A stretch of DNA of 64,000 nt, taken from the IMG/VR virus record IMGVR_UViG_2524614838_000004, positions 20,261 through 84,260 of that record. One strand, written 5' to 3'. This document shows positions 43-27,914 of the stretch, piece after piece. Both the position numbers and the translations under genes were made by a program. Below the pieces are notes generated by a model. It was not told the DNA's origin. It did no database searches and saw only the letters and a list, made by a program, of their open reading frames with translations. How positions within the stretch are numbered: position 1 is the first letter of the stretch; every line of letters begins with the position of its first letter. This stretch comes from a virus. Its lineage: Duplodnaviria > Caudoviricetes.

Positions 43-2082
43 ATGGCAGTAGGACAGAAAGTATTCAAACCTGATGAAATCCGAAAAACAATCAACGTAC
101 TAAAGCCAGAGGGTGAATTGTTTGAGGTCCGTTGTCTGGAGGCAAATGGCCGGAAAGTATACAGCGGATACTTTAAATCTCAGGAATCCTTGATTGACCA
201 GCTTTGTAGGCTGAATTCTACAGACAGCAATATTTACATAACCCTGGGAAAGGTAAAAGAAGATTGTTATTCACGGGAGCAGCGAGAAAAGTTCGTCATG
301 AATGCTAAGAATACAACGAATGACAATGATGTTGTGGGGTATAAATGGCTTTTCATAGATGTTGATCCTCAACGGCCGGCCGGTGTATCTAGTTCGGACG
401 AGCAGTTACAGGTGGCAAAGGAACGTGGCAATAAGATTTATGTGTTCATGAGGAATCTTGGATTCAATGATCCGGTAACGGCATTGAGCGGTAACGGTAT
501 TCACCTGCTTTATCGGATACAGATTGCCAATAACGAGGAAAACAAGGCTTTGGTTAAAAAGTGCTTAGCGGCGCTGGATATGTTTTTCAGTGATGATGAA
601 CTGAAAATTGATACCACAAACTTTAATCCTTCCCGTATTTGTAAATTGTATGGGACCATGGCCCGTAAGGGTAGTAACACGGAGCAGAATCCCCACAGGC
701 TAAGCCATCTGCTTTCAGAGGGGAGCAGGGAGCCAACAGATAGGATATACCTGGAAAAGCTAGCTTCAATGATTCCAGAGAAGCAGGAAAAGCCTCAGAA
801 GTATAACAATTACAATCCCAGGGAGTTTGATTTAGAGGAGTGGCTACAACGGTATAATATCCGATACAGAAAAGCCAGCTATAGTGACGGGACTAAATTC
901 ATTCTGGACGAATGTCCTTTTGACAGCAACCATAAAGGGAAAGATGCTTGCATTTTTCAGACTCGGTCCGGAGCCATTGGATTTCATTGCTTTCACAATT
1001 CGTGTTCGGATAAGACATGGCAGGACGTGAGAAAACTATTTGAGCCAGATGCTTATGAGAAGCGGCAGCAGGAGTATGAACGGAAGATCTATTCAAGGCT
1101 GCCAGTTCAGCAAAGGCCAGTTCAGAGTATAGTTCCGGTTCTAGGGAATCCGGTTTTCTTCACAGCGAGGAATATTCTGGATTTGCAGGTACCAGAGGAA
1201 CGGTTTGTTAAAAGCGGAATTGCTGACATTGACAAGAAGCTTAGGGGATTGAAGAAAAGCTATGTTACAGTTATGTCTGGTTTGAGAGCCTCCGGCAAAT
1301 CTAGTGTCATATCTGAAATGGCATTGGATGCTGTAGAATCTGGAAATAATGTCGGTATCTTTTCTGGGGAGCTGGCTCCTAAGAATTTCATGAGGTGGAT
1401 GGACCTGCAGGCAGCCGGAAAAGGGTATACGGAGCCTACGCAGTTTGAAGGATATTACAACGTCTCCAGGAAATATAAAGAGCAAATTGCAGAATGGCTA
1501 GGGCAGCATTTCTACCTGTACAACAACGATTACGGCAATGATTACCGGGCGGTGGCAGAACAATTTGAGAAGGCCATTGAGGAAAAGAAACTGGACTTAC
1601 TGATTTTAGATAATCTAATGGCATTCAATATCCTTTGCTTATCAGATAACAAATTTGAAGCACAGACGGCCTTCATTCTGGATATGCAGCGGATTGCTAA
1701 AAAACATAATGTTCATGTGCTATTCGTGGCACACCCAAGAAAAGCAATGGGATTCCTGCGATTAGATGATATTTCCGGAACTGCGGATCTGGGGAATGCC
1801 GTTGACAATGCTTTAATAGTCCACCGGGTAAACAATGATTTTAAGAGACTTGGCAAGCAGATGTTCGGGTGGAAAGATGATAACCCATTATTCAACGCAA
1901 CCAACGTAATAGAAATCGCAAAGGATCGTGATGGTGGTACACAGGATCATTTTGTACCACTGCATTATGAGCAGGAGACCAAGCGACTGAAGAATTATCC
2001 GGCCGAAAATAAAATCTATGGCTGGAATAAATCAGATGATGGGTTCCTGAATGTGGAGCAGGGCGAGATTCCCTTCGATTGA
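43..2082 (+). CDS. Primase-helicase fusion (AEP-like primase/polymerase, Zn-binding linker, DnaB-like SF4 helicase)
   Basis: FIDVD and SGNGIH primase-type motifs; CPFDSNH...HCFHNSC Zn motif; Walker A SGLRASGKSS; Walker B LILDNLM. Confidence 0.85.
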   Translation: MAVGQKVFKPDEIRKTINVLKPEGELFEVRCLEANGRKVYSGYFKSQESLIDQLCRLNSTDSNIYITLGKVKEDCYSREQREKFVMNAKNTTNDNDVVGYKWLFIDVDPQRPAGVSSSDEQLQVAKERGNKIYVFMRNLGFNDPVTALSGNGIHLLYRIQIANNEENKALVKKCLAALDMFFSDDELKIDTTNFNPSRICKLYGTMARKGSNTEQNPHRLSHLLSEGSREPTDRIYLEKLASMIPEKQEKPQKYNNYNPREFDLEEWLQRYNIRYRKASYSDGTKFILDECPFDSNHKGKDACIFQTRSGAIGFHCFHNSCSDKTWQDVRKLFEPDAYEKRQQEYERKIYSRLPVQQRPVQSIVPVLGNPVFFTARNILDLQVPEERFVKSGIADIDKKLRGLKKSYVTVMSGLRASGKSSVISEMALDAVESGNNVGIFSGELAPKNFMRWMDLQAAGKGYTEPTQFEGYYNVSRKYKEQIAEWLGQHFYLYNNDYGNDYRAVAEQFEKAIEEKKLDLLILDNLMAFNILCLSDNKFEAQTAFILDMQRIAKKHNVHVLFVAHPRKAMGFLRLDDISGTADLGNAVDNALIVHRVNNDFKRLGKQMFGWKDDNPLFNATNVIEIAKDRDGGTQDHFVPLHYEQETKRLKNYPAENKIYGWNKSDDGFLNVEQGEIPFD

Positions 2083-15569: not shown

Positions 15570-16325
15570 ATGAACAGTTTTATTAGTTGGATTGGTGGAA
15601 AGAAGTTATTGAGAAAGCAGATACTGGAACAGTTCCCGGATCAGGATTCCTATAACCGGTATATTGAGGTATTTGGCGGAGCTGGCTGGCTATTATTTTC
15701 AAGAGATAAACATGCTCCTTTGGAAGTCTTTAATGATGTCAACGGGGAATTGATCAATCTATACCGGGTGGTTAAATATCACCCGGAGCCATTGCAGAAA
15801 GAGATGGAATGGTTATTAATGTCTCGCGAGCAATTCTTTGACGAACTGAATCGAAACACCAGAGGAGTGACGGATATACAACGCGCTGCTAGGTACTTCT
15901 GTTTGATTAAGGAAAGTTTTGGAACAGACTGCAGATCATTTGGAGTGAGTTCCAGAGACATACATAAGGCAGTGGATTATTTGAAAGATGTATCAAATCG
16001 ATTGAACCGCGTCGTTATTGAAAACCAGGACTTTGAACGACTGATAAAAACATATGACAGGCCAGATTCGTTATTCTATCTGGATCCTCCATATTACGAA
16101 GCAGAGAAATATTATCCGGACCGGTTCAATCCGGAGGATCATGAAAGGCTGTGTAAATGCCTGAGTGATTTAAAGGGAAGATTCGTTTTATCTTATAACG
16201 ATTGCCAGCAGATACGTGATTTGTATGAGGGATATACTATCATTGAAGTTGACAGAATGAATAATTTGTTGAACAAGGATAGGAGCAGGAGATACAAGGA
16301 GTTGATCATAAAGAATTTCAAATAA
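15570..16325 (+). CDS. dam: DNA adenine methyltransferase (Dam family)
   Basis: WIGGK, EVFGGAG, NDVN and DPPY motifs. Confidence 0.9.
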   Translation: MNSFISWIGGKKLLRKQILEQFPDQDSYNRYIEVFGGAGWLLFSRDKHAPLEVFNDVNGELINLYRVVKYHPEPLQKEMEWLLMSREQFFDELNRNTRGVTDIQRAARYFCLIKESFGTDCRSFGVSSRDIHKAVDYLKDVSNRLNRVVIENQDFERLIKTYDRPDSLFYLDPPYYEAEKYYPDRFNPEDHERLCKCLSDLKGRFVLSYNDCQQIRDLYEGYTIIEVDRMNNLLNKDRSRRYKELIIKNFK

Positions 16326-16956
16326 GGTAAATGATTTTGATACCCCCCGGGTATGCGTTTCTTAATCTGGAATGCTCATTTTGAAACTTTGAAAATTAAC
16401 GTTAAAAATCTGACTTAGATTGTGCTGATATTTTGAAAAAAATCCAGTTCATATCCTTGTGATATTTTGAAAATTTTCAGATTGCTCTTGTAAAGGATTA
16501 TCGTTCTTGCTATGATTATGCAGGCATTACCACATGGCTTAATCCCCAGCCAGGGCCTTGTATTTGCCCCGCAGAGGGCATTAAGATAGCACGTGGTCAC
16601 TTGATCGCATTTAGAGACCCGAACCAATATAAAGGCTATTTGGTGTTATGATATCATATGCCAGTAGAGACTTCAAGGACAAAATCAGAAAGCCAATTGA
16701 ACCGCCAGAATGGTGGCCCGCGTTGCGTAGCTTTATCAAACATAAGCTTGTACCTCCTCACTTAGATTTTTGCATACATCAAGCCGCGCCCGTCCACGTC
16801 CTGCCCCGTGGCTTTGTAGGGCGTAGCCTGATCATATGCGGGGTGCTATCGTGCAACCGTTTAAACGCCGGATTACATCACCGGGGCGGTGTAAGATGGA
16901 TAGTTGCCGGCTTGCGTCAGGCAGTAGGCAGGTACACGCCTTTAGCAAGTGCTTAA

Positions 16957-16996
16957 TGGCCGCCGCCGGAATCGAACCAGCGGTACTCCAACGGCC
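16957..16996 (-). ncRNA. tRNA minihelix (acceptor stem plus T-arm only)
   Basis: Minus strand GGCCGTT-GGAGTACC-GCTGG-TTCGATT-CCGGC-GGCGGCC-A; no D or anticodon arm. Confidence 0.65.
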
Positions 16997-17004
16997 TGCG
17001 AGTG

Positions 17005-17325
17005 CTATTTTTCGATGTATCCAGCTTTTTCGAGTGCTAGAGCCACAGGGTCAGTTATACTGACTATGGCATAGGTGTTCCAACCATTTTCTACTACGGT
17101 GTGGACGATAGCTTCAGCACCCATACGGCGACACCACTTAGCGAAACGTTCGATATTGCTTCGAAAACAACGGGGGTATTTATAGCGCTCAAGGTTAATG
17201 CAGTATAAGTACCCGGCTATGCAACCGGGGTACTTGGCGTAATTTGTTATCTGATGAATTAACGCGACCCTCCTATAACGGCCCTGATATCCAAGTAAGG
17301 TGTCAACATATTTTGGTATGGTCAT
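17005..17325 (-). CDS. Hypothetical protein of the leftward operon
   Basis: ATG after AAGGAAAG; the longer GTG start in the track lies inside an RNA element. Confidence 0.65.
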   Translation of the reverse strand: MTIPKYVDTLLGYQGRYRRVALIHQITNYAKYPGCIAGYLYCINLERYKYPRCFRSNIERFAKWCRRMGAEAIVHTVVENGWNTYAIVSITDPVALALEKAGYIEK

Positions 17326-17369
17326 CTTTCCTTTTTCTTCCCTTATCCCTGGGAGCCGGGAAATAAAAG

Positions 17370-17412
17370 AACGGTGGCGGACTGAACCGCCCACGGCTTA
17401 ACCGTAACCGCC
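17370..17412 (-). ncRNA. Three-way-junction element with CGGTTAAGCCGT hairpin (copy 2)
   Basis: GGCGGT/ACCGTT, ACGG/CCGT and GGCGG-TTCAGT-CCGCC stems. Confidence 0.45.
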
Positions 17413-17539
17413 TAAATTGGATTTACTGGACCATGGTTTTAATAAAATCATCTATGCTGTTATTTGCAGTAAAATAATTTGCTGGGAAGTGCTGATCCAC
17501 TATCTTTTTCAGTGCTGATATTGCGCTTTTTAAGGTTTT

Positions 17540-17857
17540 TTATGGTTTGTATAAAGTCCAGTAGTCTTGATATTCATTTAATAACTCAGAGAAGTAAAAA
17601 TCCTTTTGCATTATCACGTATTGCCCGTCTTGGGATTTTACCATGTAACTGTTCTTTATTTCCTCTTCTCTTTCTTTAAGCATATTCCGATCGCTTTCCT
17701 CTTCAACAATTTCAACAGAATTGCATTTCTGGAGGTTATCAGAAACAATTCCGATATTAAAAACTTTCCCTACGTAATAAGCTGTAGCTTCTTGAACTGT
17801 CCCATTGAAGCGTGTTGTTGTGTTGTCACCGTTTGCATAATTTACTTTAATTGTCAT
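17540..17857 (-). CDS. Hypothetical protein of the leftward operon
   Basis: RBS AGGAGG. Confidence 0.65.
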   Translation of the reverse strand: MTIKVNYANGDNTTTRFNGTVQEATAYYVGKVFNIGIVSDNLQKCNSVEIVEEESDRNMLKEREEEIKNSYMVKSQDGQYVIMQKDFYFSELLNEYQDYWTLYKP

Positions 17858-17884
17858 AGTGTTGTCCTCCTAAAATTTGGTAAT

Positions 17885-17923
17885 CCGGCGGTTGCTTTGA
17901 CGCTACGGCTTGACCGCCGCCGG
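17885..17923 (-). ncRNA. Three-way-junction element with CGGTCAAGCCGT hairpin (copy 1)
   Basis: CCGGCGG/CCGCCGG closing stem. Confidence 0.45.
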
Positions 17924-17928
17924 TTAAA

Positions 17929-18135
17929 TTAGATAATTGCAATTCGCTTGTCTCCACTGTCAAGGGCTTTCTGGAGCTTGTTAGACATACTGGTTAAGTT
18001 CTCCGCTTTGAGATTTAAGAGCCCCTTTTCAATGGTGCTTGCTTCGGGGGACGCGGCGGCATTTGTATTGATTGCCGCATTCCTATCAAGCTCCCCAATA
18101 ATCCATGCAATTTCAGTTGTTGTCAAATTAATCAT
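17929..18135 (-). CDS. Hypothetical protein (MINLTTTEIAW...)
   Basis: ATG after GGAGG; the upstream ATG in the track lies inside the twister ribozyme. Confidence 0.65.
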   Translation of the reverse strand: MINLTTTEIAWIIGELDRNAAINTNAAASPEASTIEKGLLNLKAENLTSMSNKLQKALDSGDKRIAII

Positions 18136-18160
18136 TCTGTTACCTCCGATTTTTTGTTTT

Positions 18161-18220
18161 CCTCCGCTCTGCATTTACCAGGGCTTGTGACCTGCGGAGC
18201 TTGTCCGGCTGCATTAGAGG
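18161..18220 (-). ncRNA. Twister ribozyme, type P1
   Basis: CCTC-TAA-TGCAGC-(CGGA/TCCG)-CAGGTCACAAGCCCTG-GTAAA-TGCAGAG-CG-GAGG matches the twister core; predicted U/A cleavage at 18216/18215. Confidence 0.85.
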
Positions 18221-18235
18221 GGCGGCAGTGGCCGC

Positions 18236-18412
18236 CTAATAAGCGAATTTCGAATTGAAGATGATGGACATGTAATGAGATTTTGAAACTCTTATCGGCC
18301 GGAAGTTCAGGCAACCTACTTGCTGGCCTATGTAGTAGTGGTTGCATTTTGAAATTTTGCAGATCCAAATTTTATTTTGATTCCAGTTATCTACCCTGTG
18401 TTCTGTTTTCAT
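18236..18412 (-). CDS. Small hypothetical protein, 58 aa (MKTEHRVDNWNQNKIW...)
   Basis: RBS AAAGGAG; translated by hand. Confidence 0.6.
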   Translation of the reverse strand: MKTEHRVDNWNQNKIWICKISKCNHYYIGQQVGCLNFRPIRVSKSHYMSIIFNSKFAY

Positions 18413-18427
18413 GTGGAGCTCCTTTCC

Positions 18428-18763
18428 TTAAGCGAATATGAAATTGTGAATCTTATTTTTCATGGTAGCAGGCATTAAGAAAGCGTAACCAGTGCGAACT
18501 CTCCAGCTACAAACTGCACGAGTAGCAATGTAAAGCCGTTTCTGCTGTTCACTATCAAGTTGTAAAACTTCTATAATCGCCTGAACTGCGCTTTGTGCTC
18601 TATCGTGTGACTGATTGGCATATGACAGGTGATCTTTGCGTTTTTTCAAGCCATCAAAATCTCCGTTGTAAAGTGTCTTCCCAGAATAGCAATAATCGTT
18701 ATAACAGGTGTTTTGTTCCTCGACTAAATCAATCAGCCTTTCGATGTCAATGTTCATTTTCAT
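18428..18763 (-). CDS. Hypothetical protein of the leftward operon
   Basis: RBS GAAAGGCGGT. Confidence 0.65.
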   Translation of the reverse strand: MKMNIDIERLIDLVEEQNTCYNDYCYSGKTLYNGDFDGLKKRKDHLSYANQSHDRAQSAVQAIIEVLQLDSEQQKRLYIATRAVCSWRVRTGYAFLMPATMKNKIHNFIFA

Positions 18764-18800
18764 AATTTCTACCGCCTTTCAATGCGACTTGTTTATAAGT

Positions 18801-18855
18801 ATCCCGACCGCCAGCCGGCGGTTTCGTCTTAATTTTCAAAGACTCTTCAGGGGAT
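18801..18855 (-). ncRNA. Hammerhead ribozyme, type I
   Basis: ATCCC-CTGAAGA-GTCTT..AAGAC-GAAA-CCGCC..GGCGG-TC-GGGAT; GUC cleavage at 18806/18805. Confidence 0.9.
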
Positions 18856-19056
18856 TTATTCTCTATTTTCTAATTCTTCTTTTGCTGATTTCAAAATATC
18901 ATCATCATAAACAGAATTGGCAATCTGTATTCTTACTACTTCCATTCCGTAACTTTCAAGGTATTTTTTACACTCTTTGGTGCTTTTAAAATATCTATAG
19001 TCTTTGTAAACTTCCTTGGTGTTTGGATATGTCATAATAAACTCGAATAATTCCAT
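18856..19056 (-). CDS. Hypothetical protein, first gene of the leftward operon
   Basis: RBS GAAAGGCGGT; downstream of a consensus promoter. Confidence 0.65.
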   Translation of the reverse strand: MELFEFIMTYPNTKEVYKDYRYFKSTKECKKYLESYGMEVVRIQIANSVYDDDILKSAKEELENRE

Positions 19057-19106
19057 GATAGTTACCGCCTTTCGATTGACTTATTTGTGTTGCTTGCTAT
19101 GTTTAT

Positions 19107-19135
19107 ACTATATCACTTTAGAAAGTGACTGTCAA
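19107..19135 (-). promoter_or_regulatory. Leftward SigA promoter with a palindromic operator in its spacer
   Basis: TTGACA-17 bp-TATAGT; spacer contains TCACTTT-AG-AAAGTGA (19113-19128). Confidence 0.75.
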
Positions 19136-19144
19136 GCGATTTTA

Positions 19145-19160
19145 TAACTTTCTTAAGTGA
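19145..19160. promoter_or_regulatory. Operator copy 2
   Basis: TAACTTTCTTAAGTGA. Confidence 0.55.
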
Positions 19161-19222
19161 TAAATATGATTTGACTTTTTGTCAAAGATATTTTATACTT
19201 AATTAACTGGAGGAGGTGCGTT

Positions 19223-19465
19223 ATGTTACGATATAAAATAGATGTTGCTGATGCCTTGGAGCGCAAAGGGTTTAATTTGTATAAGGCAAAGACGACAAAG
19301 CTTTTAAGTCAAGACACACTAAAGAAAATTAAGAAAGAGGATACTACTATATCCTTAGAAAGCCTTAACCGGATATGTCTAATATTGGATATGCAACCAA
19401 AGGATTTGATAGAGTTTAAAGCAACTGAAGAAGAAGAGGAAATAAAAAAGAAACATAACTTTTAA
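19223..19465 (+). CDS. Cro/C1-type HTH regulator
   Basis: LSQDTLKKIKKEDTTISLESLNRICLILDMQPKDLIEF. Confidence 0.8.
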   Translation: MLRYKIDVADALERKGFNLYKAKTTKLLSQDTLKKIKKEDTTISLESLNRICLILDMQPKDLIEFKATEEEEEIKKKHNF

Positions 19466-19823: not shown

Positions 19824-20552
19824 ATGTCTGAATCCAGAAAGGCGGAGGATATGAGGCAAGTGAGAGACTTAACCGGCCAGCGATTCGGCAGGCTTGTAGC
19901 TAAGTATCCCACAGACAAGAGACTCGGTACATCCGTGATTTGGCATTGTGCCTGTGACTGTGGGAAAAGCTGTGAAGTTGCTGCCGTGAATCTTTTGGCA
20001 GGAACTACTAAAAGCTGTGGGTGCTTGCGAAGCGAAGCGGCGAAAGAGCAAATCGATAAAAACAGAAATCCGAAGTATATCGACATCACGGGCAGGACCT
20101 TTGGAGAGCTTACCGCGAAGTATCCCCTCCTGGACGGAAAGCGTGGCAAGGGTATGAGTATGACTTGGCATTGTGAGTGCAGTTGTGGAAAGGCGGTCGA
20201 TGTGCCATATGGCAGTCTAGCAAGTGGGAGTACGACATCATGTGGCCATGTTTGTGTGGACAAGATTAGGGAGCTTTATGTCAACGGTACAGCCCCGTGT
20301 AAATTGACATCCACGATTAGTGCGTCAAATAAATCCGGAGCTACGGGCGTGTATTACAACAAAGTGCGAAAAAAGTGGATAGCCCAAATAATGTTTAAGC
20401 GCAAGAATTATTATCTCGGAGGTTACGATGTTTTAACTGATGCAATGGACGCACGAAAGCAAGCAGAGAAAGAGATTTACGGTCCTTTCTTGGAGTGGTA
20501 CGCAAAAGCATATCCTGATCAGTGGGAAAGATTGCAGAGAAAGAAATGTTAA
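19824..20552 (+). CDS. AP2-domain protein with repeated W.C.C.CG modules (homing-endonuclease-related)
   Basis: DLTGQRFGRL...WHCACDCG repeated twice; C-terminal GVYY...WIAQI...YLGGY AP2 motif. Confidence 0.8.
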   Translation: MSESRKAEDMRQVRDLTGQRFGRLVAKYPTDKRLGTSVIWHCACDCGKSCEVAAVNLLAGTTKSCGCLRSEAAKEQIDKNRNPKYIDITGRTFGELTAKYPLLDGKRGKGMSMTWHCECSCGKAVDVPYGSLASGSTTSCGHVCVDKIRELYVNGTAPCKLTSTISASNKSGATGVYYNKVRKKWIAQIMFKRKNYYLGGYDVLTDAMDARKQAEKEIYGPFLEWYAKAYPDQWERLQRKKC

Positions 20553-27841: not shown

Positions 27842-27914
27842 GGGGAATAAGCTAATCTGGTGAAAGCGCCTGCCTGAAGAGCAGGAGAGATAGGGTCGGA
27901 ACCTATACTTCCCA
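27842..27914 (+). tRNA. tRNA-Phe(GAA) with a degenerate T-loop (possible pseudo-tRNA)
   Basis: Cloverleaf; CCTGC-CTGAAGA-GCAGG; T-loop reads GTCGGAA; one acceptor mismatch. Confidence 0.65.

Follow-up and report, generated by a model that had tools for sequence, protein, structure and literature searches.

Since 2011 it has been an open question why phages put self-cleaving ribozymes between small genes. The question is raised again by a stretch of viral DNA of 64,000 nucleotides (nt), positions 20,261 to 84,260 of IMG/VR record IMGVR_UViG_2524614838_000004 (Caudoviricetes), which we call the window and in which four different RNA modules occupy equivalent slots of one operon. Six small open reading frames (ORFs) of unknown kind lie on its minus strand, at 19056–18856, 18763–18428, 18412–18236, 18135–17929, 17857–17540 and 17328–17005 (ORF1 to ORF6). 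Upstream of them is a sigma-70 type promoter at 19135–19107 (minus strand; TTGACA-17-TATAGT with a TG extension), which had 11 of 12 matches in the promoter scan and was the only strong minus-strand match upstream of the cluster. An earlier reading made from the letters and their ORFs (the sequence-only reading) had named this promoter, these ORFs and a series of structured RNAs on the coding strand, and had proposed that one transcript is cut into nearly monocistronic messenger RNAs (mRNAs) by self-cleavage and by host nucleases that process transfer RNA (tRNA). The promoter and the ORFs stood up in our analysis, and the proposed cutting was supported in part, by the single strong promoter and by two bona fide ribozyme classes that lie on the coding strand directly after stop codons, whereas a later element of the series looks like a terminator. 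The best explanation, and in our judgement a probable one, is that the window encodes a single leftward transcript of a prophage gene cluster, punctuated by two ribozymes and three further conserved RNA modules.

The first ribozyme is a type I hammerhead at 18855–18801 (minus strand), recognised by its core, fold and covariation, and its first base directly follows the TAA stop codon of ORF1. The core was found to be complete, with CUGAAGA at 18850–18844, GAAA at 18825–18822 and GUC at 18808–18806, and the minimum free energy (MFE) fold contained an open stem I (AUCCC/GGGAU), stem II (GUCUU/AAGAC) and stem III (ACCGCC/GGCGGU). A pattern search for this core together with its stem II and loop II recovered more than 117 IMG/VR contigs, and BLAST found the core also in Agathobaculum and crAss-like phages. 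When 123 copies of this phage subfamily were compared, the full type I fold and a GUH cleavage triplet were present in 105 of them, and stems I and III covaried, with 84 distinct combinations of the two stems (triplet GUC in 68, GUU in 13 and GUA in 3). The predicted cut lies between 18806 (C17) and 18805, at the ribozyme's own 3′ side; the ORF1 message would thereby keep the folded ribozyme as a cap at its 3′ end, and a 42-nt leader would precede ORF2. In a separate observation, five other loci (L252, L253, L263, L283 and L324; L-numbers denote the loci compared) were seen to carry two to three copies of the subfamily a few hundred bases apart, with invariant stem II and loop II (GUCUUUGAAAAUUAAGAC), and these look like further punctuated operons.

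The second ribozyme is a type-P1 twister at 18220–18161 (minus strand). In a permissive Rfam search it matched the covariance model twister-P1 (RF03160) with 62.4 bits and an E value of 5e-13 over model positions 1–68 of 68, and all conserved segments were aligned at the top level of posterior probability, including UAA at the cleavage site, GCC, the CAAGCCC loop, UAAA and the 3′ GAG-G that serves the pseudoknots. The twister was retained in the related locus L002 (64 bits) and in Clostridium sp. E02 (G401; 55.5 bits). A hairpin, P0 (GGCGGC-CACU-GCCGCC; 18236–18221, minus strand), seen in sequence and fold, abuts its 5′ end and overlaps the stop codon of ORF3 at that codon's last base. The cut is predicted between U18216 and A18215, near the ribozyme's own 5′ side, so that the twister would remain as a cap at the 5′ end of the ORF4 message, with P0 capping the message of ORF2 and ORF3. 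A P0/L0 auxiliary stem is known from about 10% of twisters, and twisters with P0 were cleaved less completely on average (0.40 versus 0.85; McKinley et al. 2024, PMC11662667), so cutting of the present twister may be partial. In the same study 94% of the natural twister candidates tested were active, a figure that is only a prior for this one. Collectively, we regard the hammerhead and the twister as genuine members of their classes, as the sequence-only reading had supposed, and their predicted self-cleavage as well founded. With the hammerhead after ORF1 and the twister after ORF3, about 600 nt apart, the cluster has at least two ribozymes on the coding strand, as a ribozyme-punctuated prophage operon does.

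The slots further downstream hold RNAs of another kind. A three-way junction was found twice on the coding strand. Copy 1 (17923–17885, minus strand), supported by pattern searches, covariation and fold, lies 5 nt after the stop codon of ORF4 and 27 nt before the AUG of ORF5, and is built of helix P1 (CCGGCGG/CCGCCGG), P2 (CGG-UCAAG-CCG), a UA joint, P3 (GC-GUCAAA-GC) and AA. Copy 2 (17412–17370, minus strand), detected by terminator scan, shared core and fold, is divergent, having a 3-nt J1/2 (UUA), UG for UA and a 5-bp P3, and is followed by a U-rich tract that gives it a terminator-like appearance. The two copies have CGGTYAAGCCGT in common (two matches against 0.18 expected), share a 12-nt P2 core and the topology, and both fold as drawn, in agreement with the sequence-only reading, which had described them as related; all small RNA modules of the cluster fold as drawn, with z values of −2.3 to −2.9. 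No Rfam family matched either copy, even at E ≤ 10 with lax filters in a 621-nt search, and at E ≤ 10 no twister-sister, pistol, hatchet, hepatitis delta virus (HDV)-like or hairpin ribozyme was found for the junctions in that search or in 16 other loci with the motif. The motif matched no RAGATH family in Rfam 15, its sequence strings occurred in no relevant paper, and no match was found among reports of new phage ribozyme classes.

We found that the junction motif is widespread. A pattern derived from both copies occurred in at least 114 viral contigs, mostly of gut phages of about 77 kb, and relaxed patterns added loci with other P1 helices, such as a Neisseriaceae metagenome-assembled genome (P1 CCCCUACU/GGUAGGGG) and Clostridium sp. 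E02, so that the motif ranges from Clostridia-type to Neisseriaceae-type phages. Eight distinct versions of P1 were seen, and a pattern that left P2 free revealed a fully compensated P2 in L352 (CAU/AUG versus CGG/CCG). In an alignment of 13 distinct rows, 99.4% of cells were paired, compared with 85% in shuffles and 19–55% when the partners were slid; changes on both sides were found in 7 of 12 pairs, and the G-U pairs fit the gene strand only. This count omits L184, L219 and L056, in which MAFFT misplaces a one-base difference in the length of J3/1 and which were described by hand. Across phyla the P2 loop UYAAG, the UA joint and a GC-closed P3 were invariant, and the genes that flank the motif were unrelated from locus to locus. 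In four Proteobacteria-type loci (L219:4030–4200; L189:417–540, minus strand; L184:4130–4250; L352:120–234) a hairpin precedes the motif and forms with it a composite leader of about 100 nt; its stem covaries (AACAGC/GCUGUU, AACGCU/AGCGUU, AAUCCU/AGGAUU) and its 17-nt loop is conserved. L189 also contains a weak tRNA match (35 bits; 622–693, minus strand) about 165 nt upstream of the junction motif and on the same strand.

Several findings weigh against a transcript that is punctuated at every module. In the Rfam search the ribozymes themselves remained below the gathering cut-offs, the twister by 4.8 bits (62.4 against 67.2), because its P3 is short, and the hammerhead more widely (Hammerhead_1, 19.3 against 34 bits; RAGATH-1-hammerhead, 29 against 56.3), because a long loop II and stem III are penalised. 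For P3 of the junction motif, wobble changes were the sole support, and the rows used for covariation had been selected in part for closing P1. Among 28 motif loci, a known ribozyme lay nearby only in L036, with a type II hammerhead 800 nt before the motif, and in the relatives of the window itself, with the twister. A tight linkage of junction and ribozyme was looked for and not found: 12 other motif loci (142 kb) had no ribozyme at the gathering threshold and 1 Mb of hammerhead-bearing loci had no junction motif. In Proteobacteria-type phages, moreover, the motif was found in a long promoter-proximal leader and not between genes. Finally, most transcripts may end at copy 2 and the U tract behind it, and ORF6 and the peptide gene described below may then need read-through.

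The rarity of nearby ribozymes and the leader position argue for a leader or regulatory role of the motif rather than for cutting. Accordingly, an alternative is that the junction motif and a tRNA-like minihelix further downstream (described below) are not cleavage sites at all, and that only the two ribozymes cut; both would be elements of the leader to which a conserved factor of host or phage binds (the ribosome, RNA polymerase, a tRNA-handling enzyme or a phage RNA-binding protein), and would thereby set the translation, antitermination or stability of the next gene. The motif was always located 25–45 nt upstream of a start codon, with an A/U-rich linker between, its loops are invariant from Clostridia-type to Neisseriaceae-type phages, as expected of a binding surface, and in L219, L189, L184 and L352 it stands in a long leader behind the second covarying hairpin. 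However, the unrelated flanking genes leave no gene-specific regulon, P1 does not overlap the ribosome-binding site (RBS) and no terminator follows copy 1, so there is no obvious expression platform, and copy 1 occupies the same type of slot as the ribozymes, being intergenic and directly after a stop codon. We consider this alternative possible without favouring it. As for the junction motif taken by itself, it would most likely be a recognised 5′ module of the downstream message that signals stability or processing or offers a binding site to a factor; processing at the modules other than the ribozymes is one of several possibilities, and a role as leader or binding element has about the same likelihood. 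A more ambitious proposal is that the motif, about 40 nt long and with its covarying 7-bp P1, invariant UYAAG P2 loop, UA and GC-closed P3, represents a new small self-cleaving ribozyme class, or a universal tag cut by a nuclease common to Firmicutes and Proteobacteria, which phages use interchangeably with hammerhead and twister for punctuation; this we hold to be very unlikely.

The divergence of copy 2 raises the question of where the transcript ends. The terminator scan flagged 17391–17376 within this copy (GGCGG-UUCAGU-CCGCC with a U-rich tail), a U tract follows its closing stem in all three relatives, and the gene behind it is a swapped, moron-like cassette. These observations would be accounted for if copy 2 were a plain intrinsic terminator of an operon of ORF1 to ORF5, with ORF6, the minihelix and the peptide unit as separate transcription units. 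Against this, the promoter scan found no minus-strand promoter-like site of at least 10 of 12 matches between 18098 and 16682. The hairpin before the U tract is branched rather than simple, the tract itself is interrupted (UUCUUUUAUUU), and the P2 core and topology tie copy 2 to copy 1. A plain terminator appears doubtful to us. In the single-transcript explanation that we prefer, copy 2 may double as a leaky terminator, allowing part of the transcription to continue into ORF6.

Beyond ORF6 the strand carries a bulged minihelix that resembles part of a tRNA (16996–16957, minus strand), recognised by sequence, fold and recurrence. It consists of GGCCG, an 8-nt bulge (UUGGAGUA), CCGCUGG-UUCGAUU-CCGGCGG, CGGCC and A16957, and the MFE fold, which accounts for 82% of the ensemble, has 5 bp, the bulge, 7 bp and the UUCGAUU loop, so that the description of a tRNA minihelix in the sequence-only reading was upheld. 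Its 12 bp, T-loop (UUCRANY) and discriminator base A16957 give it the size of the top half of a tRNA. Neither ARAGORN nor the Rfam tRNA model called it, and the D and anticodon arms are absent. Further copies of the minihelix were found in Clostridium sp. E02, L357 and a pair of unrelated contigs from environmental phages (L355 and L356); double changes in the inner stem (G-C to A-U, C-G to A-U and U-G to G-C) were found in Clostridium sp. E02 and in L355/L356, while the loop and bulge were invariant. By analogy with G18 and G19 of tRNA, the bulge could dock on the T-loop through its GG, and the minihelix is a plausible entry site for ribonuclease (RNase) P or RNase Z, through which it would separate ORF6 from the last unit of the transcript. 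We also considered an attachment site and rejected it, as no host tRNA shares the 3′ half of the minihelix at up to three mismatches and the position is in the middle of the prophage. Two further observations concern RNAs of similar appearance. A bulged hairpin, termed motif B, lies between genes of two unrelated phage operons (L036:4140–4190, minus strand; L228:852–893, plus strand) without an Rfam match; it is built like the minihelix, with a covarying 5-bp outer stem, a 5′ bulge GCAAG(A)GCGnA and CCGGGG-AGCAUUU-CCCCGG, and was seen in L036 and Clostridium sp. E02. In the window itself, the Rfam tRNA model, but not ARAGORN, found a third tRNA-like gene at 27842–27914 (plus strand; 44.8 bits), which adjoins tRNA-Arg and tRNA-Gln.

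The last module had been described in the sequence-only reading as a GC-rich structured block and counted among the processing elements. Comparison with L002 and Clostridium sp. E02 showed that this block, of about 200 nt (16956–16744, minus strand), is conserved: about 115 nt are identical to L002 in a region that is otherwise 84% identical, and identity to Clostridium sp. E02 is about 95%. It folded no better than shuffled sequence (z −0.81), and RNAalifold found no compensatory pairs in three sequences, because these are nearly identical; conservation was upheld, and the word structured has conservation only to rest on. The block is followed by a small peptide gene (16743–16654, minus strand), found by the same comparison, which encodes 35 amino acids in L002 and Clostridium sp. 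E02 and is cut to 29 in the window by a TGA codon; changes within its conserved QRGPP core are synonymous. Since GUACCUGCCUACU at the 5′ end of the block can pair with the Shine–Dalgarno region AGUGAGGAGGUAC of the small ORF, we read the block as the leader of the peptide gene and not as a processing element. The last unit of the transcript would then consist of an RBS-sequestering leader and the gene of a 35-amino-acid peptide.

We next consider how genes and modules have been exchanged among the relatives. Comparison of the window with L002 and Clostridium sp. E02 showed unrelated genes in place of ORF1 and the hammerhead, which were replaced as a unit, and of ORF5 and ORF6, and the hammerhead is wholly absent from the relatives. 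ORF6 was replaced either together with the minihelix or without it. What persisted was the twister, both junctions, the leader and, in two of three relatives, the minihelix. Genes were thus exchanged and modules retained, so the modules act independently of their cargo and serve the transcript rather than a particular gene. The same comparison admits another interpretation, in which the intergenic modules are mainly recombination landmarks, that is, shared linkers for cassette exchange among related phages whose conservation reflects exchange and not RNA processing. As this would have it, the points at which homology among the window, L002 and Clostridium sp. E02 ends coincide exactly with the borders of modules, and in Clostridium sp. 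E02 copy 2 forms an island of 79 nt of homology between non-homologous genes; the exchange of ORF1 with its hammerhead, and of ORF6 with or without the minihelix, also fits. However, the pair-keeping covariation and the fit of G-U pairs to one strand only speak for selection at the level of RNA structure, the cores of the hammerhead and of the twister are known to function as RNA, and the junction motif is conserved in phages of different phyla with nothing common in the flanks. Recombination as the main role is therefore unlikely in our view, and a share in exchange and a role in RNA are not mutually exclusive.

The setting is that of a prophage, the window being part of a genome of 6.38 Mb in a single contig. 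PHROG matches around the cluster include DNA methyltransferases, integrase-like recombinases, a regulator, an HNH endonuclease and a large terminase, and the cluster forms a minus-strand island, nearly all other genes of the window being on the plus strand. It is flanked by a methyltransferase gene (15570–16325) and by a divergent gene of 80 amino acids (19223–19465, plus strand) for a Cro/C1-type helix-turn-helix (HTH) protein (PF13443, E 2.4e-9). As the best explanation, we take the cluster, which lies between DNA-modification and packaging genes, to be a set of accessory or early genes of the prophage. A 15-nt inverted repeat, read from the sequence, with arms at 19161–19147 and 19126–19112 (19112–19161 overall), surrounds the leftward −35 box and resembles an operator; it was also matched as a hairpin by chance microRNA models in the Rfam search. 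The cluster would thus be read leftward from one strong promoter bracketed by an operator-like repeat, beside the divergent HTH regulator gene. That gene has its own promoter-like site at 19171–19199 (10 of 12 matches), back to back with the leftward promoter. The layout of 19101–19199, with back-to-back promoters, inverted repeat and small HTH gene, is that of an autoregulated (Aca-like) switch before small accessory genes.

The proteins of the cluster gave few clues. Searches of Pfam, PHROGs and the protein atlas returned nothing beyond phage hypothetical for the six ORFs. ORF1 (66 amino acids) had no family match, and another gene stands in its place in L002 and Clostridium sp. E02; ORF2 (111 amino acids) is a phage hypothetical protein; ORF3 (58 amino acids) is kept in both relatives; and ORF4 has 68 amino acids when counted from the ATG after GGAGG. 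ORF6 (107 amino acids) matched phrog_32618, of unknown function; other genes take its place in L002 and Clostridium sp. E02, and neither 400 genomes from the family nor viral contigs yielded a relative of it. ORF5 (105 amino acids) ends at an in-frame TAA (17542–17540) where L002 has TAC, and its frame stays open and conserved for 39 more codons, to about 17422 (144 amino acids in L002). The TAA is, to judge from the sequence, either a recent nonsense mutation or a read-through site, and since the frame is conserved beyond it, the true gap before the next RNA element is about 10 nt.

Two RNA families that are not in Rfam can be tested at this locus, namely the three-way junction, present in more than 100 viral contigs and in phages of two bacterial phyla, and the tRNA-like bulged minihelix. 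Should one of them prove to be cleaved, whether by its own action or by RNase P or Z, the natural repertoire of mRNA punctuation grows; should both stay uncut, they would be leader elements new to phages, whose recognition surfaces are strongly conserved.

Cutting of a polycistronic transcript by host nucleases at folded intergenic signals has several precedents. RNase III processing sites lie between the early genes of phage T7, tRNAs punctuate mitochondrial transcripts, and the mascRNA of MALAT1 is a tRNA-like fold that serves as a signal for RNase P and RNase Z. The present cluster resembles these in its candidate signals between genes and its tRNA-like fold, and differs from the tRNA-like signals in that the minihelix has no D arm, anticodon arm or encoded CCA. 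The junction departs from the acceptor/T stack of tRNA too, as its continuous strand is on the 5′ side, in mirror image. Weinberg and colleagues, in a 2015 study in Nat Chem Biol, reportedly described the gene associations of twister, hammerhead and RAGATH motifs and found that ribozyme classes and other structured RNAs share phage-like neighbourhoods in Clostridia. Different ribozyme classes and structured RNAs likewise share a phage-like gene setting here, whereas the junction motif belongs to none of the RAGATH families and mostly occurs apart from known ribozymes. The twister agrees with type P1 with P0 (RF03160; PMC11662667) in its full-length model match, conserved segments, UA cleavage site and abutting P0, and departs from it in falling short of the curated cut-off. 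A close likeness is to the prophage clusters of Perreault et al. 2011 (PMC3088659), who showed in vitro cleavage for hammerhead clusters flanking single genes or short gene blocks in prophages of Clostridium scindens, Azorhizobium and Agrobacterium and proposed that the ribozymes cut long phage transcripts into gene-length mRNAs. Those clusters and this one have in common a prophage setting, coding-strand ribozymes between small genes that are unrelated, and an inferred processing to gene-length mRNAs; here, in contrast, there is one hammerhead only, and the other slots are filled by a twister, an uncatalogued junction in two copies and a tRNA-like minihelix. The layout of a ribozyme-punctuated prophage operon has therefore been known since 2011, and the novelty lies in the combination of classes within one operon, together with two recurrent RNA modules, absent from Rfam, in equivalent slots.

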